From the IMG/VR virus record IMGVR_UViG_3300012983_000030: DNA of 64,000 nucleotides, one strand, 5' to 3'. How positions within the stretch are numbered: the first letter of the stretch is position 1; every line of letters starts with the position of its first letter. The DNA is from a virus (lineage: Duplodnaviria > Heunggongvirae > Uroviricota > Caudoviricetes). Under the pieces are notes generated by a model. The model was not told the DNA's origin and did no database searches. It was given only the letters and a program-made list of their open reading frames with translations. This document shows, one piece after another, positions 19,947-34,755 of the stretch. A program made the position numbers and the translations under genes.

Positions 19947-20100
19947 AAAAAATCTTTGTGTATTGTTTAAATTCTGTTTTACGTGCAATAATTATCTGTG
20001 TATGTATAATAAGTATAACAAAGTGTGTGGCAGAAACTGAACCTAAAACTGTAACACATGTTTATAAAGGAGTATGCCATGATTCAGGAGCTATAAAATG
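19944..20100 (+). CDS. small putative secreted or membrane protein
   Basis: 52-aa ORF with a hydrophobic N-terminus. ATGA overlaps at both ends link it to the neighbouring genes. Confidence 0.25.
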
Positions 20101-20460
20101 ACACCTAAACAAAATCGTACTATTTATAGAGTAATAAATACATTTGGTGAAAAAAATCAAACAATGCAAGCAATTGAAGAGTTAATGGAATTGCAAAAAG
20201 CTTTGTTTGAAAATATACATCGCGGAACTGATAATATTGAAAATATTATAGAAGAAGTTGCAGATGTAGAAATTATGCTACATCAAATAAAACAAATTTA
20301 TAATATAGATCAAGAAAAAATTGAAAATATAAAAGATTATAAATTAGAAAGACTTGATCATACTATAGATAAGTATATCACTAAGAATGGAAAAATAAAT
20401 ACTGCTGAAACTAAAGCAACTGAAGTTCATATAGATAGAAATACATCAAATGGTCGATAA
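20098..20460 (+). CDS. MazG-like nucleotide pyrophosphohydrolase
   Basis: Small all-alpha MazG-like pattern: EELMELQKAL...EEVADVEIML. Confidence 0.5.
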   Translation: MTPKQNRTIYRVINTFGEKNQTMQAIEELMELQKALFENIHRGTDNIENIIEEVADVEIMLHQIKQIYNIDQEKIENIKDYKLERLDHTIDKYITKNGKINTAETKATEVHIDRNTSNGR

Positions 20461-20476
20461 TAAAGGAGAAAATATA

Positions 20477-20653
20477 ATGTTTGTAATTAAAAATACAAAA
20501 TATTCATATAATGCTTATTTAAATGAAAAAGGTGAATGGAAAGGATTATTATCTGCTAAAACTTTTAGTACTAGAGAAGAAGCTGAAGCAAATTTACCTG
20601 AAAATGGCGAAATAATTGCTTGGAATGAAGTAGTTGGTTTAAAAAATAAATAA
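20477..20653 (+). CDS. hypothetical small protein
   Basis: Shine-Dalgarno AAAGGAG seven nt upstream of the ATG at 20477. The ORF track started it at 20450. Confidence 0.35.
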   Translation: MFVIKNTKYSYNAYLNEKGEWKGLLSAKTFSTREEAEANLPENGEIIAWNEVVGLKNK

Positions 20654-21158
20654 AAATTTAATTAGAAATAATAATTTTTAATATTCTATATAAAAGATAA
20701 TTTTTTGTTTTACATTATATAATATTTTTAGTATAGTGTAAAAAGTTGTAGAACATAGTGAATAGGAATAATATTAAAATAACAATTCTGTTATATTAAA
20801 TACATTGACTCTACTTGGACTTCCATCTGTATTAACAGGTCTCCATGGAAGTGGATTATCATGAGCTGAACATCCTGTTGGGGTATGAGTCATAACTGCA
20901 ATTTGTGATGCAGTCCATTTAAACATGCTTGTATCATGCCACTCAATATTTGATTGTTTGACCACATTCTAAGATTGGTATAGGTAAAGATATTTCTTTT
21001 GTTTTATGGGTAATAATCACCGTATGACGACGATGTTATGAAGTTTCAAATTACAGTAGTATAATATAACACTGGCAGTCTTAAATTTCTTAGTCAGGAC
21101 CTGGTCTTAATTAGATTATTTTTACTTAAATAATCTATAAAAGAAATTTATATACTGT

Positions 21159-21233
21159 AGCGAGGTAGAGCAGTGGTAGCTCACAAGGCTCATAACCTTG
21201 GGGTCGGAGGTTCAATTCCTTCCCTCGCAACCA
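21159..21233 (+). tRNA. tRNA-Met(CAT): tRNA-Met/Ile2 (anticodon CAT)
   Basis: Cloverleaf traced by hand: D-arm TAGAGCAGTGGTAGCTC, anticodon loop CTCATAA, T-loop TTCAATT, CCA encoded. There is an A1:A72 mismatch. Confidence 0.6.
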
Positions 21234-21490
21234 AAATAATAAAATTTATACTTCTTTAAGCACGTACAGCAATTTTAACAAAAATCAAACTTTTACTTTG
21301 ATCAATAGTGCTTAGTCGAAGAAATAAAGACAAATCCAATTATCTATTCTAGATTAAATAATTGGCGGTAATCCTTGCCGCACAAGGAAGTTTGCATAGA
21401 ACTTTTCTATGTAGGTAGTATAAAGGATGCCTGATCTGCAGTCAAAGTTTTTGAGGTTAAATATACCCTTAAACACCTTTATTTTTTTTT

Positions 21491-21575
21491 GGAGGGTTCG
21501 CATAATGGTATTGCAGCGGTCTTGAAAACCGCCGACCGAAAGGTTGTGAGAGTTCGAGTCCCTCACCCTCCGCCA
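21491..21575 (+). tRNA. tRNA-Ser(TGA): tRNA-Ser (anticodon TGA), type II
   Basis: Acceptor GGAGGGT/ACCCTCC, anticodon arm GCGGT-CTTGAAA-ACCGC, long variable arm, CCA encoded. Confidence 0.6.
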
Positions 21576-21582
21576 AAAATTT

Positions 21583-21658
21583 GGTCCGTTGGGAAAACAG
21601 TTAATCCGCCTCCCTGTCACGGAGGAGATAATCGGGGCAGCACCGATACGGATCGCCA
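21583..21658 (+). tRNA. tRNA-Asp(GTC): tRNA-Asp (anticodon GTC)
   Basis: Anticodon arm CCTCC-CTGTCAC-GGAGG, T-arm ATCGG...CCGAT, acceptor pairs, CCA encoded. Confidence 0.55.
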
Positions 21659-21664
21659 ATTTTT

Positions 21665-21749
21665 GGATTCGTGGCGAAATGGGTAAATACAAGGGATTTA
21701 AAATTCCTTGGTCATCATGACTTTATGAGTTCAACTCTTATCGAATCCA
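21665..21749 (+). tRNA. tRNA-Leu(TAA): tRNA-Leu (anticodon TAA), type II
   Basis: Acceptor GGATTCG/CGAATCC, anticodon loop TTTAAAA, variable-arm hairpin GTCATCATGAC. Confidence 0.55.
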
Positions 21750-21821
21750 CTAAAAAACTAGTACAAATCTAATATAATCGCCATTTTAATAGTTCTGTAC
21801 AGTAAATAAAGGAGTATTAAA

Positions 21822-22754
21822 ATGAAAATAAATGAAGATCTTATAAATAAAGCTTTGGAAGTAGCAACATCTCAAAAAGAATTTTATAGAATAATTGGTT
21901 ATAAAAATGGAAATGTTGGAAGTAATACAGATAAACGCTATAAAAAATTTTTGTTAGATACAAAAAATATTAATATAATTGAATACTTTTTAGAAAAACA
22001 AAAATTGTTAAATAAAAGTATAAATCAAGAAGAAAAAATATGTAAAAATTGTGGAAAAATATTTGTTGGTAAATATTCAAAAAATTGTTCTGGAGAATTT
22101 TGTTGTTTAAAATGCAGTAGAATATATGTTGCCAATTTAAATAAAACAGAAAAAAGAGAAAAAATACGTTTAGGATTGAAAAGACATTATGATAAATTAA
22201 TTGATTTTATACCAAAATATCAATCTAAAATTAAACCTTTTTATAAAAAATGTATTATTTGTGGTAAAGAATTTAAAACAATAAAAGCTAAAACAAAAAC
22301 ATGTAGTCATAGTTGTGCTTCAAAATTGGCATATAAAGTTTCAAAAGAAAAATATCAAGATTGGAAATTTATACAAGGAGGTTTTAGAGAAAAATCTTCA
22401 AGAGGTAAACAAGGTTGGTATAAAAATATTTTTTGTAATTCTCAATGGGAATTGGCTTTTGTAATATATTGTTTAGATCATAATATAAAAATAGAAAGAA
22501 ATAAAGAAAACTTTATATATTTTTATAAAAATAAACAACATTTATTTTATCCTGATTTTATTGTTAATGGAAAATTAGTTGAAATAAAAAATTATTGGCG
22601 TGAAATAAATGATATTAAAATAAATGCAGTTAAACAAATAAAAGATATAGATATTTTATATACAAAAGAGTTAGAATATGTTTTTGATTATATCTTAAAT
22701 AAATATGGAAAAGATAAAAGACATATTTATGAATTATATGAAAAAACATTATAG
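21822..22754 (+). CDS. zinc-finger protein, probably a homing-endonuclease-like gene embedded in the tRNA array
   Basis: Several CxxC pairs. The N-terminal region resembles that of the HNH gene at 34849. Its position between tRNAs is typical of mobile endonucleases. Confidence 0.4.
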   Translation: MKINEDLINKALEVATSQKEFYRIIGYKNGNVGSNTDKRYKKFLLDTKNINIIEYFLEKQKLLNKSINQEEKICKNCGKIFVGKYSKNCSGEFCCLKCSRIYVANLNKTEKREKIRLGLKRHYDKLIDFIPKYQSKIKPFYKKCIICGKEFKTIKAKTKTCSHSCASKLAYKVSKEKYQDWKFIQGGFREKSSRGKQGWYKNIFCNSQWELAFVIYCLDHNIKIERNKENFIYFYKNKQHLFYPDFIVNGKLVEIKNYWREINDIKINAVKQIKDIDILYTKELEYVFDYILNKYGKDKRHIYELYEKTL

Positions 22755-22866
22755 ATTGGGTTCTATTGTCTAATAACTAAGGCATCAGGTTTTTTATGAA
22801 GTAATTAAATAAGGTTCGATTCCTTTACTGTCTATTCAGTCTAATGGTTAGTTTACTTCATTTATT

Positions 22867-22939
22867 ACACTCATAGGCTAATTGGACAAACCCAAAGTCT
22901 TCTAAACTTTTATTACAGGTTCGAGTCCTGTTGAGTGTG
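22867..22939 (+). tRNA. tRNA-Arg(TCT): tRNA-Arg (anticodon TCT)
   Basis: Acceptor ACACTCA/TGAGTGT, anticodon arm AAAGT-CTTCTAA-ACTTT, T-arm ACAGG-TTCGAGT-CCTGT. Confidence 0.55.
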
Positions 22940-23228
22940 CTAGCATTTTATTCCCAGTGCGAGGGATTAAGATTAATTGAGTAAATCTAACACACGAATG
23001 ATAGAGGCAACCACCGAAAGAGCTAATAGGAATTTTCTTAGGTAAGTCGTGATATCCGAAAGATTTATTGTCCTAACTCTGCCTAACGCTGATTCGCACC
23101 TTGTACATAAAGTATCAATTAATCGTTTATATAGGATGTCATATTTCGTAAGAATATGAGGGTCAGGATTAAGTTCACAAAAGAGATAAAGTAGATGTTA
23201 ACCTCTACCTATCCTATATTTTTTAGTT

Positions 23229-23304
23229 GGGGGTATAGCTCAGCTGGGAGAGCACCTGCTTTGCAAGCAGGGGGTCAGGAGTTCGAACCTCCTTACCTCC
23301 ACCA
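23229..23304 (+). tRNA. tRNA-Ala(TGC): tRNA-Ala (anticodon TGC)
   Basis: Matches the GGGGGTATAGCTCAGCTGGGAGAGC consensus, G3:U70 pair, anticodon loop TTTGCAA, CCA encoded. Confidence 0.8.
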
Positions 23305-23311
23305 TTTTATA

Positions 23312-23438
23312 AGAGGAGCTCTACTATGTCAAATTAGTATTTCTGCAGAAAGAAAGTTTGATTAAGAAGACGGGAAGTAGAGGGAAATTCTAATATCTGC
23401 AGGCATTAGTTGTGTGTGGTTCGACTCCACCTCCTCTA
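23312..23438 (+). ncRNA. tRNA-like gene of about 127 nt: perfect acceptor halves and a canonical T-arm, but about 50 extra nt inside
   Basis: 5' AGAGGAG pairs with 3' CTCCTCT; T-arm GTGGTTCGACTCCAC; a CTGCAG...CTGCAG segment lies between them. Too long for any standard tRNA. Confidence 0.35.
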
Positions 23439-23452
23439 GCCGTTTTTTTTTT

Positions 23453-23544
23453 GGAATCATGGGTGAGTGGCTGAAACCAGCAGTTTGCTAAACTGTCGTT
23501 CCTTTTATAAGGGACCGAAGGTTCGAATCCTTCTGATTCCGCCA
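23453..23544 (+). tRNA. tRNA-Ser(GCT): tRNA-Ser (anticodon GCT), type II
   Basis: Acceptor GGAATCA/TGATTCC, anticodon loop TTGCTAA, long variable arm, T-arm GAAGGTTCGAATCCTTC, CCA encoded. Confidence 0.6.
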
Positions 23545-23555
23545 AAATTAATAAT

Positions 23556-23630
23556 GCGACTATAGTACAACGGTTAGTACGAAGCCTTGCCAAGGCCTAG
23601 ATACGAGTTCGATTCTCGTTAGTCGCTCCA
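23556..23630 (+). tRNA. tRNA-Gly(GCC): tRNA-Gly (anticodon GCC)
   Basis: Acceptor GCGACTA/TAGTCGC, anticodon arm AAGCC-TTGCCAA-GGCCT, T-arm ACGAG-TTCGATT-CTCGT, CCA encoded. Confidence 0.7.
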
Positions 23631-23643
23631 TTTTTTTTTTTCA

Positions 23644-23735
23644 TGGGGGTCGGTAAAACTATCCTTACAGATGCTAGCTATAGTTTGGACGTTTACATAG
23701 GTTGCGCAATGACACCGATATAGCTACCCCCGCCA
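23644..23735 (+). ncRNA. non-canonical tRNA-like RNA of about 92 nt (GGGGGT...ACCCCCGCCA ends, internal 8-bp stem, no TTCGA T-loop)
   Basis: Closing helix GGGGGT/ACCCCC with a CCA-like 3' end; inner stem TAGCTATA/TATAGCTA. It ends 2 nt before tRNA-Glu. Confidence 0.3.
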
Positions 23736-23737
23736 AT

Positions 23738-23814
23738 GGTCCCGTCGTCTAGCGGCCTAGGACATCTCCCTTTCACGGAGAAGATCACGAGTTCGAATCT
23801 CGTCGGGATCACCA
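23738..23814 (+). tRNA. tRNA-Glu(TTC): tRNA-Glu (anticodon TTC)
   Basis: Acceptor GGTCCCG/CGGGATC, anticodon arm TCTCC-CTTTCAC-GGAGA, CCA encoded. Confidence 0.65.
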
Positions 23815-23867
23815 GTTTACTATATACTTTGTTCTAAAAGGTAGATAAATCTTCTAGGACATTAAGT

Positions 23868-24386
23868 ATGCGAATATATACTGATGCGAGTACCAGAAAA
23901 AATATATCTGGAATAGCTTTTGTCGTAACAAATGCTAAAGATGAAGTACTCTGTAGAAAGGGAGTAATCGTAGAAGAATCTGATAATAATTCTGCAGAAT
24001 TACGTGCGATTTTATTTGCATTAGCTTATACTAAAAGTACAAAAGAGCATACTACAATATTTACTGATTCTACTTATGCTATAAATGCTATACGAAATGG
24101 TTACTATAGACCAAATGAAAAGAAGATAGTAGAAGAAATTCATAAAAATATGAAAGAACGTAAATGTCATTTAATGTGGATTAAAGGGCATTGTCAAGAT
24201 GGTACTATTCTTTTATATTATAATAAACAAGCGGATAAATGTGCAAAAGAAGTAAGAAAAGCTTATGAAAATGAATTACTTCTTCAAAAAAAGAAAAATA
24301 TTCAATTACTTAGAGATCAATATAGAAAAAAATCTAAGAAAAATAAAAAACAGAAATTTATTACAAAAAATAATTCAAGAGAATAG
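23868..24386 (+). CDS. rnhA: ribonuclease H
   Basis: RNase H-fold catalytic motifs: IYTDAS...AELRAILFAL...TDSTYAIN...GHCQDGT..N.QADKCA. Confidence 0.65.
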   Translation: MRIYTDASTRKNISGIAFVVTNAKDEVLCRKGVIVEESDNNSAELRAILFALAYTKSTKEHTTIFTDSTYAINAIRNGYYRPNEKKIVEEIHKNMKERKCHLMWIKGHCQDGTILLYYNKQADKCAKEVRKAYENELLLQKKKNIQLLRDQYRKKSKKNKKQKFITKNNSRE

Positions 24387-24407
24387 TTCTTATATAAGTA
24401 ATTTTAA

Positions 24408-24481
24408 GCCGAATTAGTTAAATGGTATAACAGTTGACTTGTAATCATCTATTGGAAGTTCGATTCTTTCATTCGGCACCA
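24408..24481 (+). tRNA. tRNA-Thr(TGT): tRNA-Thr (anticodon TGT)
   Basis: Acceptor GCCGAAT/ATTCGGC, D-stem GTTA/TAAC, anticodon loop CTTGTAA, CCA encoded. Confidence 0.6.
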
Positions 24482-24486
24482 TTTAT

Positions 24487-24563
24487 TGGTCGGTAGCTCA
24501 GGTGGTTAGAGCACAGCTCTGATAAAGCTGGGGTCGCAAGTTCGAGTCTCGCTCGGCCAACCA
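24487..24563 (+). tRNA. tRNA-Ile(GAT): tRNA-Ile (anticodon GAT)
   Basis: D-arm TAGCTCAGGTGGTTAGAGC, anticodon arm CAGCT-CTGATAA-AGCTG, CCA encoded. Confidence 0.7.
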
Positions 24564-24574
24564 TTTTAGTTTAT

Positions 24575-24649
24575 TGGGATGTAGCACAGTGGTAGTGCAA
24601 TCGGCTGTTAACCGATTGGTCGGGGGTTCGAATCCCTCCATCCCAGCCA
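24575..24649 (+). tRNA. tRNA-Asn(GTT): tRNA-Asn (anticodon GTT)
   Basis: Acceptor TGGGATG/CATCCCA, anticodon arm ATCGG-CTGTTAA-CCGAT, CCA encoded. Confidence 0.7.
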
Positions 24650-24672
24650 AATTTTAAAAGGAGTGTTATATA

Positions 24673-24858
24673 ATGGCGATAGAAAAGAAAAAGAAATCTT
24701 TTGAAGAAATAATGTTTGCAAAACGCTGGGCAAAGAGAATGAAATTAATGCCAAGTTTTCATTTATTAAAAAGTACAGTAGGTAAAGCTCCGGCTTGTAA
24801 TACAAATACTACTAAAAAAGAAGTAACATTACAAGTGGCTAGTAAAAAGAAAAAATAA
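24673..24858 (+). CDS. small basic protein (hypothetical)
   Basis: Shine-Dalgarno AAAGGAG seven nt upstream; 61 aa, Lys-rich; a terminator follows. Confidence 0.35.
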   Translation: MAIEKKKKSFEEIMFAKRWAKRMKLMPSFHLLKSTVGKAPACNTNTTKKEVTLQVASKKKK

Positions 24859-24898
24859 TCAAATTTTTGTTTTACTTTTAAAAAATTTAGTATATATT

Positions 24899-24933
24899 AA
24901 AAGTGTTCTTAAAAAATATAGGAACACTTTTTT
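24899..24933 (+). terminator. rho-independent terminator
   Basis: Hairpin AAGTGTTC...GAACACTT followed by a T-run. Confidence 0.55.
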
Positions 24934-24951
24934 AAAATTATTATTTAAGAA

Positions 24952-25038
24952 GGGCTTGTGGCGGAACAGGTAGACGCTGCAGACTTAAAATCTGTTGTCC
25001 GCAAGGACGTGCCGGTTCGATTCCGGCCTAGCCCACCA
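24952..25038 (+). tRNA. tRNA-Leu(TAA): tRNA-Leu (anticodon TAA), type II; second copy
   Basis: Anticodon arm GCAGA-CTTAAAA-TCTGT, variable-arm hairpin GTCCGCAAGGAC, T-arm CCGGTTCGATTCCGG, CCA encoded. Confidence 0.6.
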
Positions 25039-25056
25039 TTTAATGAAAGATGCTAA

Positions 25057-25296
25057 ATGCAAAAATGTAAAATACGATTACAAAATGATATAGAATGGGA
25101 AGAATATGAAAATGAACAAAATGTTCATCCTATGATATTAGTACAATCGTGGGTAGAAAAGCATCCTGAATGGTATGCAAAAAGTGTAGTTTTAGATGGT
25201 GATAGAGTATTATTTGTGGAAGTTTTAGATGAAGATATAATTCGTACTTTTCAAGTTACAGTGACATTTTCATTTAAAACGGTTGAAATAAGTTAA
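25057..25296 (+). CDS. hypothetical protein
   Basis: 79-aa ORF with a weak Shine-Dalgarno site. Confidence 0.3.
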   Translation: MQKCKIRLQNDIEWEEYENEQNVHPMILVQSWVEKHPEWYAKSVVLDGDRVLFVEVLDEDIIRTFQVTVTFSFKTVEIS

Positions 25297-25303
25297 TCTT
25301 ATG

Positions 25304-25419
25304 CGAGAAGTAGCTCAGTCTGGTAGAGCACGTATTTGTATTTAGTCCTAAATACGTACAGCATTATATTTTTTTGCTTGGTAAGCACGTGGTCATTGGT
25401 TCGAATCCAATCTTCTCGC
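25304..25419 (+). ncRNA. tRNA-like gene with a canonical 5' half and T-arm but an extra internal segment of about 42 nt
   Basis: 5' CGAGAAG-TA-GCTCAGTCTGGTAGAGC, T-arm ATTGGTTCGAATCCAAT, acceptor 3' CTTCTCG. The insert holds a 7-bp hairpin (CGTATTT/AAATACG) and a T-run. AGCACGT recurs on both sides of the insert. Confidence 0.4.
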
Positions 25420-25442
25420 ACTTTTTTAGAAAGGAAACATTA

Positions 25443-25700
25443 ATGAAATTATCTAAATCTGAAATTGAAAGAAAAGTAAAAGAAATATTAAGTGAAGTTT
25501 TAGTAGCACCTAAAGAATCAATTACTTTAAATGCAAATTTGGCACATGATTTAGGAGCAGATAGTTTAGATAATGTTGAAATAGTAATGTATTTAGAAGA
25601 AGAATTTGGGTATATTATTCCAGATGCGGTTACAGAAAAATTAGAAACAGTAGAAGATATTATTAATTATATAGAAGAAAGAGAAAAAAATGAAGTCTAA
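25443..25700 (+). CDS. acpP: acyl carrier protein
   Basis: Classic phosphopantetheine-attachment motif LGADSLDNVEIVMYLEEEFG. Shine-Dalgarno AAAGGAAA. The upstream part of the listed ORF (from 25374) overlaps a tRNA-like gene and is not coding. Confidence 0.7.
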   Translation: MKLSKSEIERKVKEILSEVLVAPKESITLNANLAHDLGADSLDNVEIVMYLEEEFGYIIPDAVTEKLETVEDIINYIEEREKNEV

Positions 25701-25891
25701 AAAAAATGACAATAACAGTTAAAATTCCAAAACCAAGGGATTTTAATTTAATAAATGCTCAAATAAAAGGATTGTTAAGAACAAAAGTAATTAGAAATAA
25801 AAAGAAAGACGTAAAAAAATATAATTGGAAAAAAGATATGTCTTATTATTTAAGTATTTTAACAATAAAGTATTTTAATAATAAGACATAT

Positions 25892-25968
25892 GCCTGATTA
25901 GCTCAGTCTGGTAGAGCATCTCGTTTACACCGAGAGGGTCGGCAGTTCGAACCTGTCATCAGGTACCA
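25892..25968 (+). tRNA. tRNA-Val(TAC): tRNA-Val (anticodon TAC)
   Basis: D-arm TAGCTCAGTCTGGTAGAGC, anticodon arm TCTCG-TTTACAC-CGAGA, CCA encoded. Confidence 0.7.
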
Positions 25969-26108
25969 TTTTTAATTTTAACTTCTTGTGGTGTAAGCGA
26001 TAGGTTTAATAATACTATAGCTCTTTTATTAAATCCTAACGGTAGTAGCTTAATTCCCACTAAGGTTTAGGTACAAGTGCAAGTCTTGTCAAGAAGAACA
26101 TTTTTTAT

Positions 26109-26188
26109 GGGGTGTTAAATCTGGTTCTAGAACAGATTGCTTAGGATGTAGGTCCAAGATAACGTGTGAAAATCATGTGGCCCCGCCA
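26109..26188 (+). ncRNA. non-canonical tRNA-like or structured RNA of about 80 nt (GGGGTGT...GGCCCCGCCA)
   Basis: Terminal helix with a CCA-like end followed by a T-run; internal palindromic hairpin AATCTGGTTCTAGAACAGATT; no canonical T-loop. Confidence 0.25.
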
Positions 26189-26277
26189 TTTTTTATAATA
26201 TTAAATATAATATTGTTTTACTTTCTAAATAATGTATATTAAATAATAAAAGTTGAAATTATTTAGAAAGGTTTAAA

Positions 26278-26445
26278 ATGACATATCAATATTATTCCAG
26301 AAAAGAATTACAAGAAATTTATAATACATCACAAAAGACAGAAAATCTCACATTTTCAACGTTTTATATTAGAGTACATCAATTAAATTGGTCTATTGAA
26401 AAAGCATTAACTTATTATGTAAAACCATTAAAAAGGAGAAAATAG
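26278..26445 (+). CDS. small hypothetical protein
   Basis: 55-aa ORF whose stop abuts the start of the next gene. Confidence 0.25.
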   Translation: MTYQYYSRKELQEIYNTSQKTENLTFSTFYIRVHQLNWSIEKALTYYVKPLKRRK

Positions 26446-26622
26446 ATGGCAAACTCTAGACAAGAATATAACTATGAGATTTTAAAAGTTCTGAAAGAAA
26501 ATATTAAAAAATATCCAGATTATAGATTTATCCAATTACTTTGGGCATTAAATATTATCGATGGCTCAGACAAGTTTTATGAAGAATCGAAAGAAACTTT
26601 AGATTATATAAAAGATAAATAA
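26446..26622 (+). CDS. small hypothetical protein
   Basis: Shine-Dalgarno AAAGGAG upstream; 58 aa. Confidence 0.3.
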   Translation: MANSRQEYNYEILKVLKENIKKYPDYRFIQLLWALNIIDGSDKFYEESKETLDYIKDK

Positions 26623-26700
26623 AAAATATTATTCCTGTTTTACTTTTTTATAAATTCATAGTATATAAAAAGTATTCTATAAATAAAAAAGGAGAAATTT

Positions 26701-28266
26701 ATGAATACTTATATTGATGTTTTAGGTTTAGATAAAAATCACACTGAAATTAAACCAGCTCGTGTAAAGACAAATAGTTTTATCAAAGCTCAAACTAATA
26801 AAACGTTTACTGAAAACGGGGCTTTGACTAATGCTTCTTCTTTATCTAAAATTGTTGATTGGTTTTTTCATGGAGCTGCTCTTCGTAAAGCTGAAGAAAA
26901 ACGTATTTTAAATTTATTCACAGATGCATTTAAAGAGAATCCTACTAGTGCTTTACGTATTTTATTTTATATTCGTGATATTCGCGGTGGACAAGGCGAA
27001 CGTCGTACTTTTAGAATTTGTTTGCAATGGCTTGGAAATTATGAAGCAGAATGGTTATCAAAAAATCTATCATTGATTTTTGAATATGGTAGATGGGATG
27101 ATTACTTTGTATTATTTGATACTAAAATTGCTAATACAGTAATTGATTTCATTGGAAGCCAACTTGAAAAAGATTTGAAACATCATGTTAATAATGAAAT
27201 AAGTAATCTTTCGTTGTTAGCAAAATGGATGCCTTCTGAAGCAAGTGTTAAGTATGAAACAAAAAAATATTATAATGCTTTACTTAAAACTGGTAAATTT
27301 GGTACAAAACGTAATTATCGTAAAGCAATCAGTATTTTAAGAAAAGACTTAGATATTGTTGAAAGAAAATTATCTGCTAAAGAATACTCTAATATTGATT
27401 ATGAAAAATTACCTTCATATGCAATGTTAAAATATTCTAAGCCTCGTGTTTATAATGGTATGGAAGGTAGCTTTTTAAGAAATGATAAAAAGCGTTTTTC
27501 TGAATACTTAGATAAAGTAAATAAAGGTGAAACAAAAATAAACGCTAAGACTTTATATCCATACGATTTAGCACGTGAATATACTGATAATCTTTATTGG
27601 AAGTGTACTTATAAAAAATCTGAGTTAAATGCTACTATTGAAGCTCAATGGAAAGCATTACCAGATTATGTTCCAGAAATAAACGGATTAGTAGTATGTG
27701 ATACTTCTGGTTCAATGAATGGTTTGCCTATGGCAGTAGCTATGTCTTTAGCAGTTTATATTGCAGAAAGAAATAAATCTGAAATTTGGAAAAATTATGT
27801 AATACCATTTTCATCTTCAGCTAAATTTATGGAAGTATCTGGTGAAACACTTCTTGAAAAATTAATATCAATATATACTGGTGATTGTAGTAATACAAAT
27901 TTACAAGCAGTATTTGATTTAATTTTAAATAGAGCTAAGGCAGCAAATGTATTGGCAGAAGACATGCCAAAACAATTGTTGATTATAAGTGATATGGAAT
28001 TTGATTCTACTTCATTTGGATATACAAATTATGAAAAAATTAAACATAAGTATAAAGAGAGTGGATATGTTTTACCAAAATTAGTTTGGTGGAATGTAGA
28101 CAGTAGAAATACACAAACTCCAGTTACTATTGATGATAAAAATAATTTGTTATTGTCTGGATCATCTCCTTCTTGCTTAAAAGTAGCTTTATCTGGAGAG
28201 TTTGATATAGTTGAAACAATAAATAAAATTATTGAACAAGAACGATATAGTTGTATAAATTATTAA
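26701..28266 (+). CDS. DUF2828-like protein with a C-terminal von Willebrand A (MIDAS) domain
   Basis: MIDAS motif VVCDTSGSMNG; N-terminal region ILFYIRDIRGGQGERR; 521 aa. Confidence 0.5.
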   Translation: MNTYIDVLGLDKNHTEIKPARVKTNSFIKAQTNKTFTENGALTNASSLSKIVDWFFHGAALRKAEEKRILNLFTDAFKENPTSALRILFYIRDIRGGQGERRTFRICLQWLGNYEAEWLSKNLSLIFEYGRWDDYFVLFDTKIANTVIDFIGSQLEKDLKHHVNNEISNLSLLAKWMPSEASVKYETKKYYNALLKTGKFGTKRNYRKAISILRKDLDIVERKLSAKEYSNIDYEKLPSYAMLKYSKPRVYNGMEGSFLRNDKKRFSEYLDKVNKGETKINAKTLYPYDLAREYTDNLYWKCTYKKSELNATIEAQWKALPDYVPEINGLVVCDTSGSMNGLPMAVAMSLAVYIAERNKSEIWKNYVIPFSSSAKFMEVSGETLLEKLISIYTGDCSNTNLQAVFDLILNRAKAANVLAEDMPKQLLIISDMEFDSTSFGYTNYEKIKHKYKESGYVLPKLVWWNVDSRNTQTPVTIDDKNNLLLSGSSPSCLKVALSGEFDIVETINKIIEQERYSCINY

Positions 28267-28288
28267 GTTCTAATAAAAAGTTTAGAGT

Positions 28289-28462
28289 CACCAAAAAACA
28301 TACAGCAGACACTATATGAAAAATATTTGTATTTAACATAGGTCGGTATTGTTTAGATAGTTAAGATTTGTTCTGATTATCAATGAGTGACAATACGAGA
28401 TGAGGACCCGGATGCGTTTTTTGTTAAGCGTGACTCTAAAGCGGGTCCTCATTTATTTTAAA
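28289..28462 (+). ncRNA. structured non-coding element with nested inverted repeats, including a GC-rich hairpin with T-run
   Basis: Outer inverted repeat TTTAGAGTCAC...GTGACTCTAAA (11 bp, 130 nt apart); inner GATGAGGACCCG...CGGGTCCTCAT followed by TTTATTTT. Confidence 0.3.
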
Positions 28463-28473
28463 AGGAATATAAA

Positions 28474-29025
28474 TTGAAAAAGTATAAAACAAAAATAAAA
28501 AATTTAAAAAATACAATAAATAATACTTCAAAAGAACTTGCCTGGAATGTAGACATAGCTTTTGCTGAAATGTTATATCCAGTTATTAAACAGTTTAAGA
28601 AAGATGCATTAAAACACATTGATTTTTCACAATATGGTATGTATAAATATGAAAAAATATTATGTAAATATTTAAAAAATAAAAAAGTGTATGAATATTT
28701 TCATAATAAAGGTAAAACTAGATTTGAAAATAAACTCAATGAATTAGAAGATTGTTTGAATGATATTTGTATAGAAGATACTAAAGAACACAGAACAAAA
28801 TGGAATTTAAAAGAATTATTAGAAGTAAAATATAATCATATTCCTATTAAAAAACCAAATGTTGGATTATTATATCGTATGGAAATCAAGCCAGAATATA
28901 AAGAAAATGATATAAAAAATACAAAAATAATACAATATAATGCAAAGATACTTAAAAAATGCTATAAATGGCGAAAAAAATGCTTATATTGGTTTATTGA
29001 TAATTTACATATTTTATGGTGGTAA
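28474..29025 (+). CDS. hypothetical protein
   Basis: 183-aa ORF. Confidence 0.4.
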   Translation: MKKYKTKIKNLKNTINNTSKELAWNVDIAFAEMLYPVIKQFKKDALKHIDFSQYGMYKYEKILCKYLKNKKVYEYFHNKGKTRFENKLNELEDCLNDICIEDTKEHRTKWNLKELLEVKYNHIPIKKPNVGLLYRMEIKPEYKENDIKNTKIIQYNAKILKKCYKWRKKCLYWFIDNLHILWW

Positions 29026-29028
29026 AAA

Positions 29029-29313
29029 ATGGATATTGTTACCTTAATGAAGTTACATAAAACTACTTTTAAAAATAAAGAATTATTAGATACAACTAAT
29101 GAATGCGCATGCTGTTCTTGTAATCATTTTTTAAAAACTTCAGACATTAAAGAATGGACAGATAATGCTTTAACTGCAATATGTCCATTATGTGGAGTAG
29201 ATGCTATAATTCCTATAACTGTTGAAAATCCTATAACTGAAGATGATTTGGAAAAATTATATAAATATTATTTTACTAATTTAGAAAAAGAATTTAAAAA
29301 TAATAAAAAATAA
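29029..29313 (+). CDS. hypothetical Cys-rich protein
   Basis: CACCSC...CPLC pattern. Confidence 0.4.
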   Translation: MDIVTLMKLHKTTFKNKELLDTTNECACCSCNHFLKTSDIKEWTDNALTAICPLCGVDAIIPITVENPITEDDLEKLYKYYFTNLEKEFKNNKK

Positions 29314-29510
29314 CAGTTCTATAAAACATGATGAATATTTTAGTGACATATTTTTACCCTTATTATCAACAACCTATAAACGGTTGATGGGTAGTTATTA
29401 CTTAAAATATTATCATAAGTAGGAAGTGCCCATCAAAAGAAATTTTGTGGGTATTTTTTTATTTTTGTGTTTTACATTTATTATTTTAGGTATTATATTT
29501 ATATTGTTTT

Positions 29511-29587
29511 CGGAATGTAGCTCAGCCTGGTAGAGCGCTAGTTTTGGGTACTAGATGTCGTGAGTTCAAGTCTCGCCATTCCGACCA
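29511..29587 (+). tRNA. tRNA-Pro(TGG): tRNA-Pro (anticodon TGG)
   Basis: Acceptor CGGAATG/CATTCCG, anticodon arm CTAGT-TTTGGGT-ACTAG, CCA encoded. Confidence 0.7.
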
Positions 29588-29592
29588 TTTAA

Positions 29593-29678
29593 GGGTGAGT
29601 CGCATAGAGGCTTATTGCAGCGGACTGTAAATCCGCCGTCTTCGGACATCGGTGGTTCAAATCCATCCTCACCCACCA
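29593..29678 (+). tRNA. tRNA-Tyr(GTA): tRNA-Tyr (anticodon GTA), type II
   Basis: Acceptor GGGTGAG/CTCACCC, anticodon arm GCGGA-CTGTAAA-TCCGC, long variable arm, CCA encoded. Confidence 0.7.
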
Positions 29679-29682
29679 TTAT

Positions 29683-29756
29683 TGGAGGATCGTCTAAAGG
29701 TAGGACAACGCACTTTGACTGCGTTAATATTGGTTCGATTCCAGTTCCTCCAGCCA
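29683..29756 (+). tRNA. tRNA-Gln(TTG): tRNA-Gln (anticodon TTG)
   Basis: Acceptor TGGAGGA/TCCTCCA, anticodon arm ACGCA-CTTTGAC-TGCGT, CCA encoded. Confidence 0.65.
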
Positions 29757-29776
29757 TTTTTTAATAAAGGGGGTTA

Positions 29777-30812
29777 TATGCGAACAGTAGGCACGTCTGT
29801 ATATGGATTAATTTGTCCAATTTTTAAAGAAGGTGATGATTTATGCCAAAAAATTTGTGATACACTTTTAAATAGTGAATTAGAAATAAATGATAGAGAT
29901 ATTTTAGGTATTACAGAATCTGTGGTCGCTAGAACTGAAGGAAATTATGTTACTGTCGATGAAGTAGCAGAATCAGTTAAAAAGTTATTTAATAATCCAA
30001 TAGATATTTTAGTATATAATCCGATTTATTCTCGTAATAGATTCGCAATGATTTTAAAAGGCATTGCAAGAGCAGTTACAGGAACTGTCTATATAACAAT
30101 GCTTAATATTGATGAAGTTGGTAATGTATTACAAAATCACCCTTTTACTGGTTTGAATTATGATGAATATTATAAATCAATTGTTGAAGCAGAAGGTAAA
30201 AAGTGTTATATTATATATCAAAATGAATCAGTAGGTTATTTTGATAATGTAATAGATTGTCAAATACATCAAAATACATTCGATGTAACATTAAAAGACA
30301 TTTGTTCAGATAAATGCGAATATGGACTTTATGGTTCAAATAAAGCAACAGAAGAAAAATTAAAGTTATTTCCATCTAAAAAATTTGCTCAAGAACTTAT
30401 TAGTAATATTCAAATTACTATTTATGGCAAAGTCGGTAAGAAAATTGAAGTAATGGTATATGGGGATGGTTGTTTTAAAGACCCTGTTGGTGGAATATGG
30501 GAATTAGCAGACCCTGTTGTAAGTCCTGCTTATACAGATGGATTAAATGGAACTCCTAATGAGTTGAAACTCAAATATTTAGCAGATAATGATTATAAAG
30601 ATTTGAGTGGAGACGAATTAACAAATGCTATTAAACAAAGCATTAAAACAAAAGATAAAAATCTTGTTGGCAACATGGCATCACAAGGAACAACACCGAG
30701 AAGATTAACAGATTTATTAGGTTCTTTAATGGATTTAACATCTGGAAGTGGTGATAAAGGTACACCTGTTGTTTATGTCAAAGGTTATTTTGATAATTTG
30801 AGTACTTATTAA
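29777..30812 (+). CDS. CofE-like (F420-0:gamma-glutamyl ligase family) amino-acid ligase-like protein
   Basis: ILGITESVVARTEGNYV resembles the CofE active-site strand. Shine-Dalgarno AAGGGGG. The start was moved from 29652 because the upstream part overlaps tRNAs. Confidence 0.45.
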
Positions 30813-30822
30813 GGAGGTCTTA

Positions 30823-31026
30823 ATGAAATTAAAGTATATAATACTTTTTATTTTGATTATTTTATTGTTAATGGCTTGTTCTCATGAAAATACTTCTTTA
30901 GATTTAGATAAAGAATTACGTTGTCAAGGTTATATTCGCACTGATTATACTGAAGAAGAAATTTTAAATGAATATTCAAATGTACATGAATGCATACAAT
31001 ATAATAAAAAATTTTATTGCTATTAA
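30823..31026 (+). CDS. small lipoprotein
   Basis: Signal peptide followed by a lipobox (LLLMAC); 67 aa. Confidence 0.4.
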   Translation: MKLKYIILFILIILLLMACSHENTSLDLDKELRCQGYIRTDYTEEEILNEYSNVHECIQYNKKFYCY

Positions 31027-31072
31027 TTTTCTGCTTTTAATTTAATGTAAAATTTGATATATAAATAAATAT

Positions 31073-31150
31073 GCGTCGGTAGCTCAGCCCGGTTAGAGCT
31101 GTCCGCTCATAACGGATAGGTCGTTGGTTCGAATCCAGCCCGACGCACCA
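31073..31150 (+). tRNA. tRNA-Met(CAT): tRNA-Met/Ile2 (anticodon CAT); second CAT tRNA
   Basis: Acceptor GCGTCGG/CCGACGC, D-arm TAGCTCAGCCCGGTTAGAGC, anticodon loop CTCATAA, CCA encoded. Confidence 0.65.
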
Positions 31151-31151
31151 A

Positions 31152-32330
31152 TTATAATAAATTTAAATTAACAATACAAAGTACTAGCTTTTCATTTGTT
31201 TCAACACTACTCTCTAAAGCCCTAGCTAGTACTTTTTTATTTATATCATACCATTTCTTTTTTCTTGCAATTCCTGGAATAGATGATAATACTAATTTAT
31301 CACCTCTTTGTATTTTTCCAATTACTCTTACTAATACCCGTCCAGACAATGCAATTTTACAAGGATTTTCATAATCATTATTACTATTTAAGATAAAACC
31401 AGGTTGACTTGAAATTACTGCAATAGGATCTGAAGAAGCAATGGATATTTCACTATTTTTGCCTATTTTGACTAAAGTTCCAGCAGGATAATTTTTATCT
31501 GCTTCATAAATTTCTGCTAAATCTGCATATTGGGCATATAATGCTGTACCTTTAATAATACTAGAAAAAGTTTTAACGCCTGCTATTGTCTCATCACCAG
31601 TCTTATGAACAACGGCACTGTCATTAGCTTTTCCTGCAAGAGAAGTTGCCCAATTACTCCAATCCATTTGAGATTGATTGATTTGACCATTAGCAACAAT
31701 TACAAAAAATCTTGCTCTTAAGTTATCACCTTGTACTTTAGCTCCACTTTTATGAATGCCATTTTCTGCTGAAGCGTTAGTCATTTGTTGACGAGCAGTG
31801 GAATATCCTGAAGCAGCTCTATCTGAAAATTCACCATTGGTACCAGCTCCATTCGTACCTGTATTGACAATTACACCTCCAACAGTAGTAGATGTTGCAG
31901 GAACATATCCAGCATTCCCTGCTGTTCCTCCAGCATTAACAATAGCAAGATGGTGAGTATGATCCGGTAAACTTTCTTTATATATTTTTCCTAATTCACT
32001 ATCAGATTTAGCTTGTGTAAGATAACTACCGTCTTTTATTGTTGGTACTTTAAATTTTTTATTAGTCGAATCTACTGCAAATTTATTTGTTTGACCATAT
32101 GTATTTAGGTCAGTGGTATATTCGGCATAAGTACAAGTAAGTAATTTTCCAGTTAATAAATAATTATTAAACAGCTCAGAAAATTGAGCTTCTTGATATT
32201 CTGATCCATCACAAGGTAAACAACCAGAAGGAATATAAGAAGAATTACAAATTACTTTAACAATCTGTCCTATAATTTGTATACCATCTGATGTTCCAAA
32301 TATTTTTTTAGTACCTAAATAAACACCCAT
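31152..32330 (-). CDS. tail fiber / receptor-binding protein
   Basis: Gly/Thr/Asn-rich repeats and a VHKTGDETIAGVKTF-type fiber motif. It lies next to another fiber gene. Confidence 0.55.
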   Translation of the reverse strand: MGVYLGTKKIFGTSDGIQIIGQIVKVICNSSYIPSGCLPCDGSEYQEAQFSELFNNYLLTGKLLTCTYAEYTTDLNTYGQTNKFAVDSTNKKFKVPTIKDGSYLTQAKSDSELGKIYKESLPDHTHHLAIVNAGGTAGNAGYVPATSTTVGGVIVNTGTNGAGTNGEFSDRAASGYSTARQQMTNASAENGIHKSGAKVQGDNLRARFFVIVANGQINQSQMDWSNWATSLAGKANDSAVVHKTGDETIAGVKTFSSIIKGTALYAQYADLAEIYEADKNYPAGTLVKIGKNSEISIASSDPIAVISSQPGFILNSNNDYENPCKIALSGRVLVRVIGKIQRGDKLVLSSIPGIARKKKWYDINKKVLARALESSVETNEKLVLCIVNLNLL

Positions 32331-32332
32331 AA

Positions 32333-32638
32333 TTATTCTTCCAGTTTACGAATTTCTTCTCTCCAAGCTTTACGTGTAGCCTTTTTGATTTCCCATTCTT
32401 CTTCAGTATATTCACCGTCTAAATATTTTTGTCCCCAGTAATCTGCCTCTTTTAACAAATATTTTAATTCTAAAATTCTATTTTTCTTTGCTTCTTCTTC
32501 AGTTGGTTTTGGGGTTTGTATAATTTCATAATATGTATCACAATCTTTAAATTCAGCATGGTTTGCATTACACCAAATAGCATATTTAGCATATTCTTCA
32601 TCAGTTAATTTATCTTTGTATAATTTTTTACCTATCAT
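32333..32638 (-). CDS. hypothetical protein (possibly a fiber assembly factor)
   Basis: 101-aa ORF lying between the two fiber genes. Confidence 0.35.
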   Translation of the reverse strand: MIGKKLYKDKLTDEEYAKYAIWCNANHAEFKDCDTYYEIIQTPKPTEEEAKKNRILELKYLLKEADYWGQKYLDGEYTEEEWEIKKATRKAWREEIRKLEE

Positions 32639-32647
32639 TTCTTTATC

Positions 32648-33790: not shown

Positions 33791-33915
33791 AACATTAAAT
33801 AATCTCTATATTGAAACTTAATATATTATATATGATATATGAACGATTTAATTTAGTTTTTTGTTTTACTACACAAATATAATAGTATAATATAATTGAA
33901 AATAAGGAGTTTGTC

Positions 33916-34308
33916 ATGACACGAATTAATTTAATATCAACAAAAGAATTATCTGATCAACATTTATTAGCAGAATATAGAGAATTACCTCGTGTAATTA
34001 AAGGTGATTTTAATATTAATAATGCTCCAATAAAATATTGTCTCGGTAAAGGACATATAAAATGGGCAAAGTTACATAGTGCTTATTTAATTCTTAGATA
34101 TGATTTAATTTGTCAAGAAATGAGATATAGAGGTTTTACAGTTAATTATCCTTCGAAAGATTTAATTAAAGAATGGGATGGTGGACACATGTATTTTCCT
34201 TCAAAAGAAGATATAGAAGTAAGCAAAAGACGTTTAATAGAAAAATATAAATTAAAACCTAAATGGTATAAATGGACAAATAGAGAAAAACCAAAATATT
34301 TTTCATAA
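33916..34308 (+). CDS. denV: pyrimidine-dimer DNA glycosylase (T4 endonuclease V / DenV-like)
   Basis: N-terminus [27 protein letters not shown] closely matches T4 endonuclease V ([27 protein letters not shown]), including the catalytic N-terminal Thr and the Glu. Confidence 0.85.
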   Translation: [130 protein letters not shown]

Positions 34309-34492
34309 ATTGTGATTTTTTGCTTTACTTTAAATTTTTATATGTTATTATATTTTTTATCGACTATGATTGGTTAAATAAAGGTTCTAAATAATATGAT
34401 GAAAAGTACGATTAAACATTTTTGGCATTGTTTTTACTTCGCTAGAGGCGATGCCGTTTAATTATACCTTTTTGTCGGTATTATTTGGTTTG

Positions 34493-34525
34493 AGCCTCTG
34501 AGATTTTTCAGAGGCTTTATTTTTT
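34493..34525 (+). terminator. rho-independent terminator
   Basis: Hairpin AGCCTCTGA...TCAGAGGCT followed by a T-run. Confidence 0.6.
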
Positions 34526-34601
34526 GGTTAAGTAGCTCAGTTGGTAGAGCAGGAGACTGAAAATCTTCGTGTCGGCGGTTCGATCCCGTCCTTGACCACC
34601 A
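34526..34601 (+). tRNA. tRNA-Phe(GAA): tRNA-Phe (anticodon GAA)
   Basis: D-arm TAGCTCAGTTGGTAGAGC, anticodon loop CTGAAAA, T-arm GGCGGTTCGATCCCGTC, CCA encoded. Confidence 0.7.
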
Positions 34602-34603
34602 TT

Positions 34604-34677: not shown

Positions 34678-34678
34678 T

Positions 34679-34753: not shown

Positions 34754-34755
34754 AT

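Follow-up and report, generated by a model that had tools for sequence, protein, structure and literature searches.

How should a tRNA gene be read when dozens of extra nucleotides lie inside its anticodon arm? The question is raised by positions 25304-25419 of a 64,000-nt stretch of viral DNA (Caudoviricetes; IMG/VR record IMGVR_UViG_3300012983_000030), the whole of which we call the window. An original prediction, made from the letters alone, described this element as an interrupted tRNA-like gene and pointed to features in it resembling a terminator and a target-site duplication. Our analysis suggests that the insert is a working part. The element most likely yields a stable noncoding RNA of ~116 nt, in which an entire tRNA scaffold carries a 42-nt module in the 5' strand of the anticodon stem. 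We think it probable that this RNA is a Y-RNA-like tRNA chimera that docks a Ro-like protein and presents a tRNA or an anticodon mimic. The module and the adjoining anticodon-type stem-loop would then be the signature of the RNA partners of Ro60-like DUF2828 + DUF7788 proteins, a view that draws on gene neighborhood and predicted fold. Hundreds of phages and gut bacteria have the module beside such a gene, and the window has one 1.3 kb downstream of the element.

A tRNA scaffold with a module in its anticodon stem

The tRNA likeness of the element is well above chance. The Rfam tRNA model (RF00005) matches 25304-25419 on the + strand with 46.8 bits (gathering score, 29; E = 7e-7 for the whole window), in an alignment that spans model positions 1-71 and leaves a 46-nt unaligned block in the anticodon arm. 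The acceptor, D, and T arms are in register, with a 7-bp acceptor stem, a GCUC/GAGC D stem, and the T loop GGUUCGAAUCC, so that the tRNA halves CGAGAAG and CTTCTCG and the two arms noticed earlier are confirmed in place. The insert of about 42 nt between the D and T arms was likewise borne out: 65 nt (25330-25394) separate the two arms, compared with 22-23 in a class I tRNA, which leaves 42 nt for the insert. A contiguous 5-bp anticodon stem is lacking, the insert splitting its 5' strand after position 28/29, and ARAGORN, which called 23 ordinary tRNAs in the window, did not call this one. Mis-assembly is ruled out because a near-identical copy, with one additional T in its T-run, occurs in an independently assembled sister contig (L270; Logan ERR11636065) that is syntenic with the window and encodes a DUF2828 protein 94% identical to that of the window. 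The parts of the element are as follows.

25304-25332 (+), 5' tRNA part, by the Rfam tRNA alignment: acceptor 5' strand CGAGAAG (25304-25310), U8 A9, D arm (25313-25329), A26, then C27 G28
25313-25329 (+), D arm GCTCAGTCTGGTAGAGC
25333-25337 (+), single-stranded insert lead UAUUU, by parsing of homologs
25338-25355 (+), hairpin H, GUAUUUA-GUCC-UAAAUAC, from minimum free energy and centroid folds and from RNAalifold with compensatory changes
25356-25364 (+), linker GU and the conserved single-stranded motif ACAGCA(U) (25358-25364), for which the family consensus is (N)ACAGCAA
25365-25374 (+), U-rich insert tail, holding the T-run TATTTTTTT (25367-25375)
25375-25389 (+), inner anticodon stem UGC (25375-25377; U29 G30 C31), 7-nt loop UUGGUAA (25378-25384), and 3' strand GCACG (25385-25389)
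25390-25419 (+), variable loop UGGUC, T arm (25395-25411), acceptor 3' strand CTTCTCG (25412-25418), and discriminator C25419, with no encoded CCA
25395-25411 (+), T arm ATTGGTTCGAATCCAAT

C27 G28 (25331-25332) form the outer two pairs of the anticodon stem and, jointly with U29 G30 C31, pair with GCACG at 25385-25389. With 25333-25374 deleted, CGUGC/GCACG is a perfect anticodon stem of 5 bp and closes a 7-nt loop that has U33, A37, and GGU in the anticodon position (25380-25382). The start of the insert is ambiguous between 25333 and 25334 because T25333 and T25375 are interchangeable as U29. Two hairpins compete within the insert because GTATTT is tandemly duplicated. The original prediction paired CGTATTT (25331-25337) with AAATACG (25350-25356); the insert does carry a hairpin of its own, but homologs favor GUAUUUA-GUCC-UAAAUAC at 25338-25355 over that pairing. 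An eighth acceptor pair is possible between G25303 and C25419.

The hairpin and the T-run behind it had been called terminator-like, and one could suppose that they act as an intrinsic terminator or attenuator in a tRNA-like leader controlling the acyl carrier protein (ACP) gene at 25443-25700. There is indeed a T-run of 7 (25369-25375), and the ACP start codon follows 24 nt after the element. An intrinsic terminator, however, has a G+C-rich stem with its T-run within 0-2 nt. Here the hairpin is AU-rich and weak (~-4 kcal/mol), ~13 nt (25356-25368) intervene before the T-run, and a terminator scan found no site within 25304-25419. Furthermore, the homologs described below have A/U-rich tails without a T-run and are followed by unrelated genes. 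We regard control of the ACP gene by termination as scarcely credible.

As a tRNA, the element would be a tRNA-Thr: its anticodon position reads GGU, and its body has C1-G72 and perhaps a G-1:C73 pair. That anticodon is otherwise missing from the tRNAs that ARAGORN called in the window. CCA is encoded by 21 of the 23 ordinary tRNAs, and not by this RNA. No uninterrupted copy of the same body (CGTGC-N7-GCACG) was found in IMG/VR, and therefore no intron-less allele is available for mapping the junctions; a search of IMG/VR for relatives by way of the neighboring ACP protein also returned none.

Conservation and covariation of the inserted module

The architecture is not peculiar to the window. 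A pattern based on the conserved flanks recovered it in Vibrio phage 6E35.1a, whose copy bears the annotation tRNA-OTHER pseudogene, and in 14 IMG/VR contigs. When tRNA genes were sought with a motif-blind pattern that required 56-86 nt between D arm and T loop, at least 120 viral loci with several insert classes were returned; a looser motif pattern added only false positives. We refer to the type found in the window as class A: a hairpin and (N)ACAGCAA inserted after anticodon-stem position 28 or 29, mostly straight after the dinucleotide CG. Among 22 curated and ~79 strictly defined homologs, the order is lead, hairpin, ACAGCAA, and tail, placed at 28/29 or 29/30, and the insert is 38-55 nt long. 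Leads are A/U-rich, 5-14 nt long, and mostly begin with UA or AA right after CG; tails are A/U-rich as well (7-14 nt) and not conserved in sequence. Hairpin H has the consensus GUCUUG-N-CAAAGAC in most homologs, often with a GNRA-type loop.

Covariation supports both the module and the split stem around it. In the alignment of the 22 curated sequences, the structure is 88% paired, and its covariation value of 0.80 compares with 0.08-0.20 in slid controls and was reached by 0 of 500 shuffles. The outer anticodon pairs formed by C27 G28 are 100% paired with covariation, and the hairpin helices are 83-85% paired in the same count. Across 11 distinct stems, the inner anticodon pairs are Watson-Crick in 30/30 cases; with the register slid, the figure is 10-13/30. 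The C, G, C, and A of the ACAGCA motif are invariant, U33 is present in 20/22 sequences, and R37 in 22/22. Unaided, RNAalifold predicted the T arm, the hairpin within the insert, and the inner part of the anticodon stem closing a 7-nt loop. A covariance model made from these sequences (R1) scores the window element at 65.9 bits and recovers copies outside its training set, often more than one in a contig and with different D arms.

An orthologous element occurs in phage KVP40 ("tRNA-Pseudo-3") and in relatives from two other genera. Across eight KVP40-group phages, the only differences in tRNA plus insert are at 2 insert positions, while 177-220-nt BLAST matches covering the element together with its flanks reach no more than 76-79% identity. 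The insert itself is thus subject to purifying selection. These copies end in an encoded CCA.

Such conservation bears on another reading, in which a small mobile or slipped-in sequence has killed the tRNA gene and left the heptamer AGCACGT as its target-site duplication. Annotation might seem to favor it, the KVP40 and Vibrio phage 6E35.1a copies being labeled tRNA pseudogenes or tRNA-OTHER, and so might the missing ARAGORN call and the missing CCA. Yet in the KVP40 group the insert is as conserved as the exons, compensatory changes maintain pairing in the hairpin and in each half of the split stem, and, as described below, the RNA is linked to a Ro60-like gene that has the same orientation in 94/94 loci. 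The heptamer is truly repeated, at 25327-25333 and 25384-25390, but its interpretation as a target-site duplication fails. The second copy does not start until 9-10 nt past the insert, and class A members with other anticodon stems do not have the repeat; because the heptamers do not flank the insert, no target-site duplication is indicated. Rather, the repeat follows from a stem of CGUGC/GCACG and the self-complementarity of ACGU: one copy is tRNA positions 23-29 (ACGU preceded by the AGC of the D stem), and the other is positions 38-44 (A38, GCACG, U44). Folds of the 22 inserts gave no consistent terminal inverted pairing. Thus "interrupted" was right as a topology, and what interrupts is a conserved functional RNA module and not a mobile-element scar. 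Conservation and covariation largely refute the dead gene, which we consider highly improbable.

What the anticodon position does in this family is less typical of tRNAs. Near-identical class A bodies carry either UCU (L002/L011) or GUU (L004/L009/L010/L013), and two substitutions fall exactly in the anticodon, which suggests that it turns over rapidly or is under diversifying selection. In bacteria, tRNA-Leu, -Ser, and -Tyr belong to class II and have long variable arms. In the strictly defined class A set (79 RNAs), a Leu or Ser anticodon sits on a body with a variable loop of 4-5 nt in 9 cases, A34 occurs in several, and an encoded CCA in none (0/79). Judging from these sequences, the anticodon position seems not to be constrained as it is in working tRNAs.

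The family extends into cellular genomes. In a scan of one genome per prokaryotic species with the class A pattern, the matches listed were mostly from Lachnospiraceae, Clostridia, and Oscillospiraceae; most of those listed are true class A RNAs, and several loci hold two or three of them and no ordinary tRNA. The RNA family is thus widespread, conserved, and functional, and found in phage contigs and in Lachnospiraceae/Clostridia genomes. As far as we could find, in literature searched for phage tRNA mini-introns and for DUF2828, neither this family nor its tie to DUF2828 Ro-like proteins has been described.

Other insert types were seen alongside class A. A second class of ~55-60 nt occupies the same site after the anticodon-stem CG (L033, L085 with three copies, L106, L113, L122); it ends in GGUUACUU, is without ACAGCAA, and had no DUF2828 gene in the flanks examined. 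L024, L025, L045, L058, L061, and others have an insert with nested T-arm or tRNA-like sequence (GGTTGAGAGTTCGAGTCTCTCAAG ...), reminiscent of the "tRNA within intron" of Lak phages, and a further recurrent type (AGACCAAATAGTCCGTCGCAT ...) occurs in L041, L046, L072, and others. In KVP40 (L143; 2197-2443), tRNA-Pseudo-4 and -5 are also oversized and have a hairpin + NCUGCA insert, which in Pseudo-5 lies in the anticodon loop region and not in the stem.

A Ro60-like protein gene accompanies the RNA

Downstream of the element lies the gene of its candidate partner.

26701-28266 (+), gene for a 521-aa protein with DUF2828 and DUF7788 domains (Pfam E = 3e-42 and 7e-41) and a Ro60-like fold, that is, a helical-repeat ring and a vWA domain

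From gene neighborhood and predicted fold we infer that this product is the protein partner of the RNA at 25304-25419. An AlphaFold model built with 38 homologs has a pLDDT of 85.5 and a pTM of 0.86. Its three best fold matches in the PDB are to the Ro60 of Thermus phage phiLo (9l5y, 9kop), over ~520 columns with E = 1e-7 and a TM score of ~0.5, and the next are isolated vWA/MIDAS domains. Searching the PDB by sequence gave no match, and neither Pfam nor the fold search detected a nuclease domain in the protein.

The gene and the RNA travel together. A tblastn search with the window protein against the collected loci found full-length homologs in 94 loci, at 34-41% identity and with E values as low as 1e-107. 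Gene and RNA share a strand in 94/94 of these, the RNA is upstream in 86/94, and the median gap is 244 nt. Among the listed loci of the motif-blind viral set, the gene was present in 7/22 with the ACAGCAA motif versus 0/98 without it. In the window, RNA and gene share a strand and are 1282 nt apart, with the ACP gene, a tRNA-Val, and small open reading frames (ORFs) between them. A cellular example is provided by a 564-kb Lachnospiraceae chromosomal contig (L177). There, an array of class A tRNAs and smaller ACAGCAA RNAs, contained within 700 nt and lying downstream of genes for glyA, gerA, and an ABC/FtsX transporter, stops ~30 nt short of a clear homolog of the 26701-28266 gene.

The DUF2828 family is large, with at least 5,574 proteins at E <= 1e-20 and a homolog in 711 isolated phage genomes, and we found no paper on its function. 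The encoding phages include cluster-L mycobacteriophages, Felix O1-like coliphages, P100/A511-like, Twort-like, and EFDG1-like phages, Campylobacter phages, the KVP40 group, and Lak-B4. In the cluster-L mycobacteriophages, the homologs are annotated "Ro-like RNA binding protein."

Genes for the ligase RtcB are recurrent neighbors, being found at no fewer than 11 loci (including L180, L187, L199, L200, L206, L209, L212, L249, L263, and L264). In Listeria phage P100 (L271; 6259-7542), an RtcB "tRNA splicing ligase" and an HD phosphohydrolase are encoded just downstream, RtcB being 1.3 kb from the DUF2828 gene. No RNA ligase or RtcB was found among the 30 ORFs scanned in the window, which is part of a genome. 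Separately, P100 has a ROOL-like RNA at 1947-2498, ~1 kb upstream of the DUF2828 gene, with a score of 86 bits that is below the gathering score of 99.

One module in three topologies

The window holds a second, simpler member of the family.

21256-21315 (+), free-standing family member: 8-bp stem UUAAGCAC/GUGCUUAG with a terminal U.G pair, GU, ACAGCAA, a 12-nt tail, the hairpin UCAAA-CUUUUAC-UUUGA, and a 6-nt linker

It begins 23 nt past a tRNA-Met and has a Lys-like loop, CUUUUAC. The sequence near 21262 that had been recognized earlier as related to the insert is AGCACGTACAGCA at 21259-21271, a part of this RNA; looking for the insert elsewhere thus returned a related module in the window and a wide family in other genomes. 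In L134, the inner hairpin is the same as in 21256-21315, and the outer stem is different but compensated.

A strict search specified, in order, a closing stem of 7 bp, a spacer of 0-3 nt, NCWGCAA, another 3-18 nt, a hairpin of 5 bp whose 7-nt loop has U33 and R37, a further 3-16 nt, and the second strand of the closing stem. It retrieved 62 elements in 42 loci, and in DUF2828 loci 39/39 were on the strand of the gene. The window gave a single strict match (21257-21314), compared with 1 match in 20 shuffles.

Free-standing RNAs of this kind, with the same motif 3' of a closing stem, adjoin DUF2828 genes in diverse genomes. P100 has three stem+ACAGCAA copies without a tRNA body, behind a strong promoter and directly upstream of gp165; Lak-B4 has one such RNA ~100 nt upstream of its DUF2828 homolog, and a Lachnospiraceae chromosome also has the form without a tRNA body beside the gene. 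Mycobacteriophage Faith1 has three module copies downstream of gp55. In the middle one, the order is closing stem, ACAGCAA, inner anticodon stem-loop, variable loop, T arm, looped acceptor stem, D arm, "G CG," and the lead back to the closing stem. In the order of its parts, this RNA is a circular permutation of the window RNA and has the layout of a YrlA RNA. The common core is helix H, single-stranded ACAGCAA with its tail, an anticodon-type stem-loop, and an A-rich return strand. The tRNA body is optional. Two tRNA-like RNAs at 6741-6955 of L177, with acceptor and T arms, a hairpin plus ACAG(U/C)AA, and no recognizable D arm, represent additional topologies of the family.

Splicing, repair, or mimicry

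Could the insert instead be an intron? In that case the element would be an intron-containing pre-tRNA-Thr(GGU), and the 42-nt insert would be excised and the exons rejoined with the help of proteins, namely Ro-like recognition, an endonuclease, and RtcB. To our knowledge, such a protein-dependent tRNA splicing pathway is undescribed in bacteria or phages, and we consider it unlikely. Removal of the insert gives a perfect anticodon arm, and does so for 11 different stems with compensatory changes. The very module is also found free-standing beside the same gene, however, where there are no exons to join, and in the permuted Faith1 form the RNA ends lie at the "intron" ends. In favor of splicing, GGU is otherwise absent from the tRNAs of the window; against it, KVP40 already has a canonical Asn(GUU) alongside its interrupted copies. 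Those copies end in CCA, which speaks for splicing, whereas the 79 strictly defined class A RNAs and the window RNA do not, the latter in the company of CCA-encoding neighbors. RtcB is adjacent in the loci enumerated above and in P100, yet the window ORFs scanned include no RtcB, and the Ro-like protein has no nuclease domain. Also on the side of splicing, "enigmatic introns" have been reported in tRNAs of Lak phages (10.1101/356790). Against it, the class A insert is strongly constrained in sequence, it has neither a bulge-helix-bulge (BHB) motif nor a group I core, and the bodies bear Leu or Ser anticodons on class I frames, A34, and GUU or UCU on near-identical backgrounds.

A broader form of the proposal holds that phages and Firmicutes share a hitherto unrecognized, protein-dependent kind of tRNA processing, in which a hairpin+ACAGCAA tag within the anticodon stem of pre-tRNAs recruits the DUF2828 ring and an unspecified endonuclease and RtcB remove the module or swap or repair damaged anticodon loops. 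We consider this unlikely as well. A variant in which an Rnl2-type nick-sealing ligase acts after excision was dropped, as nothing spoke in its favor.

The Ro-like chimera has its own difficulties. The pairing of protein with RNA is drawn from gene neighborhood and fold, and the protein has no match to the Pfam TROVE domain. The gap of 1282 nt in the window exceeds the family median, and in the KVP40 group the RNA and the DUF2828 gene are ~10-12 kb apart. The known Ro-binding motif, GNCGAA/CGAA in the 5' strand of a terminal stem, is absent, and ACAGCA(A) 3' of a helix stands in its place. In addition, the canonical-looking anticodon stem-loop restored by removing the insert is equally expected of an intron, the KVP40 copies encode CCA, and RtcB, a tRNA-splicing ligase, is encoded beside at least 11 loci. 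All of this weighs against the chimera. Nevertheless, a tRNA chimera and a splicing or repair pathway are not wholly exclusive.

Should the chimera be correct, the RNA would be transcribed with the tRNA array and its ends processed as in a tRNA, by analogy with Ro60 and YrlA-class Y RNAs. The hairpin+ACAGCA module would dock on the Ro-like ring, and the tRNA body and its exposed anticodon loop would form the effector or mimic end of a ribonucleoprotein (RNP), which may recruit or decoy tRNA-recognizing enzymes. Both the physical binding and the role of the RNP are put forward by analogy. Because RtcB genes flank a subset of loci, a role in tRNA damage and repair is plausible: the RNP may act in tRNA damage, repair, or decoy during infection, as the Salmonella operon rsr-yrlBA-rtcBA and the anticodon-type hairpin kept in every topology would suggest.

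Relation to known RNAs

The closest parallels are with Y RNAs, which are bound by Ro60 proteins and encoded beside them. Bacterial YrlA RNAs combine a Ro-binding stem containing GNCGAA(N)G with a tRNA-like domain (PMC4201824), and 254 bacteria and 22 phages have such RNAs in the vicinity of TROVE-domain genes (Chen et al. 2014, PMC4201824). In Thermus phage phiLo, Ro60 binds Yrl1 and Yrl2, two Y-like RNAs with CGAA that are encoded upstream (PMC12135203). Like these, the RNAs described here are small and are encoded within a few kilobases of a gene for a Ro60 fold, on the same strand and often several per locus. Also like YrlA, they are modular, with a putative protein-binding stem bearing a short single-stranded motif and a tRNA-like domain, which in the window is a full tRNA scaffold. 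RtcB is near some DUF2828 loci, just as it is in the Salmonella operon. The Faith1 member has the same topology as YrlA, with a closed acceptor stem and the RNA ends in the protein-binding stem. The window RNA differs in ending at the acceptor stem and holding the binding module internally, which amounts to a circular permutation, and in keeping an intact anticodon-type stem-loop. The proteins also differ: Ro60 is a TROVE protein, and the window protein is of the DUF2828/DUF7788 type.

An experimental parallel comes from the P100-like phage CKA15, in which highly abundant transcripts arise on the same strand within 2 kb upstream of CKA15_055 (PMC12282133). HHpred links the product of that gene to Rsr, the protein is present in virions, and the authors speculated that the transcripts are Y RNAs (PMC12282133). 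We observed three stem+AACAGCAA elements upstream of CKA15_055. The transcripts are an independent hint and candidate matches to the three ACAGCAA RNAs; a ROOL-like RNA occupies this region too.

Other systems resemble the element in part. The Lak megaphage tRNA genes with "enigmatic introns" (Devoto et al., 10.1101/356790) are likewise oversized phage genes that bacterial tRNA finders return as pseudo or undetermined, with short conserved inserts. That report gives no motif, structure, or protein link, and one Lak insert is a nested tRNA-like sequence, resembling what we call "class C" and not the window element.

Archaeal and eukaryal BHB introns are also tens of nucleotides long, can lie in the anticodon stem (29/30 in Crenarchaeota), and belong to a pathway finished by RtcB-type ligases. 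We know of no tRNA splicing endonuclease in bacteria or phages. The two 3-nt bulges and 4-bp helix of a BHB are not seen here: the 22 inserts and the alignment consensus contain no conserved lead-tail or exon-intron helix, and both junctions of the window insert instead abut a continuous helix with the 3' strand. The class A insert also differs in having a conserved sequence motif and a linked protein gene of its own. Group I introns, too, interrupt the anticodon arm of bacterial-type tRNA genes, but they exceed 200 nt, have a P1-P9 core, and lie in the anticodon loop, whereas the class A insert is 38-55 nt, lies in the stem, and has no RF00028 match. Finally, tmRNA has tRNA-like ends with a functional domain inserted at the place of the anticodon arm; it contains an ORF and pseudoknots, while the window RNA has neither, keeps its anticodon stem-loop, and is far smaller.

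Several further candidates were tried and set aside. A search of 25200-25520 against Rfam, even at E <= 1, gave no match besides tRNA, and no ribozyme, riboswitch, or Intron_gpI family; hammerhead, twister, pistol, hatchet, hepatitis delta virus (HDV)-like, and group I structures for the insert thus had no match at the gathering score or at E <= 1. HDV-like and BHB folds drawn by hand did not fit, and a closing lead-tail helix of the insert paired in some members only in folds of the 22 inserts. By eye, we saw no T-box-style codon-like complementarity between insert and anticodon. The stable RNAs C and D of phage T4 (rnaC, rnaD) are unrelated.

Other features of the tRNA region

The 23 canonical tRNA genes form an array at 20000-36500 that includes none for Lys or Asp, and the tRNA-His (35394-35469) has T, not G, at position -1. 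Two unusual metabolic genes for a phage tRNA region are present: the ACP gene at 25443-25700 (+; PP-binding, E = 2e-13), with its start codon 24 nt past the RNA element, and a gene resembling F420-0:gamma-glutamyl ligase at 29775-30812. Two sites without an ARAGORN or Rfam tRNA call may be further odd tRNA-like RNAs or remnants. The first, at 22790-22850 (+), has a good T-arm-like sequence, AAGG-TTCGATT-CCTT, and the second, at 23365-23452 (+), has GTGG-TTCGACT-CCAC along with a matching 7-bp acceptor-like stem. Another structured RNA possibly lies at 25970-26195 (+), in a 310-nt ORF-free gap bounded by the tRNA-Val and by the small ORFs that precede the DUF2828 gene. Distant segments in it are complementary (AACUUCUUG ... 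CAAGAAG), and a hairpin, GUCUUGUCAAGA, resembles hairpin H; ACAGCAA is absent.

Implications

Our findings offer one explanation for a set of scattered annotations. A class of what have been called "tRNA pseudogenes," "tRNA-OTHER," and enigmatic phage tRNA introns, in KVP40 (tRNA-Pseudo-3) and in many metagenomic phages, can be explained as one conserved structured RNA family. At the same time, DUF2828/DUF7788, a very large uncharacterized family, gains candidate RNA partners together with a motif, namely a helix, ACAGCAA, and an anticodon-like hairpin. If the splicing or repair system were true, it would be a bacterial counterpart of the enzymatic tRNA splicing of archaea and eukaryotes. It could provide a regulated or defense-resistant supply of tRNA during infection, with the free-standing ACAGCAA hairpins acting as decoys or spare parts.

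More generally, the Ro-like chimera would extend the biology of Ro60 and Y RNAs to a second, divergent lineage of proteins and RNAs. The occurrence of the same module in free-standing, tRNA-permuted, and tRNA-inserted topologies would be a natural experiment on how tRNA mimics of the Y-RNA type are built. Moreover, the neighborhood of RtcB and the free variation of the anticodon lead to a testable idea, that is, that phage Ro-like RNPs may take part in the conflict over tRNA cleavage and repair.

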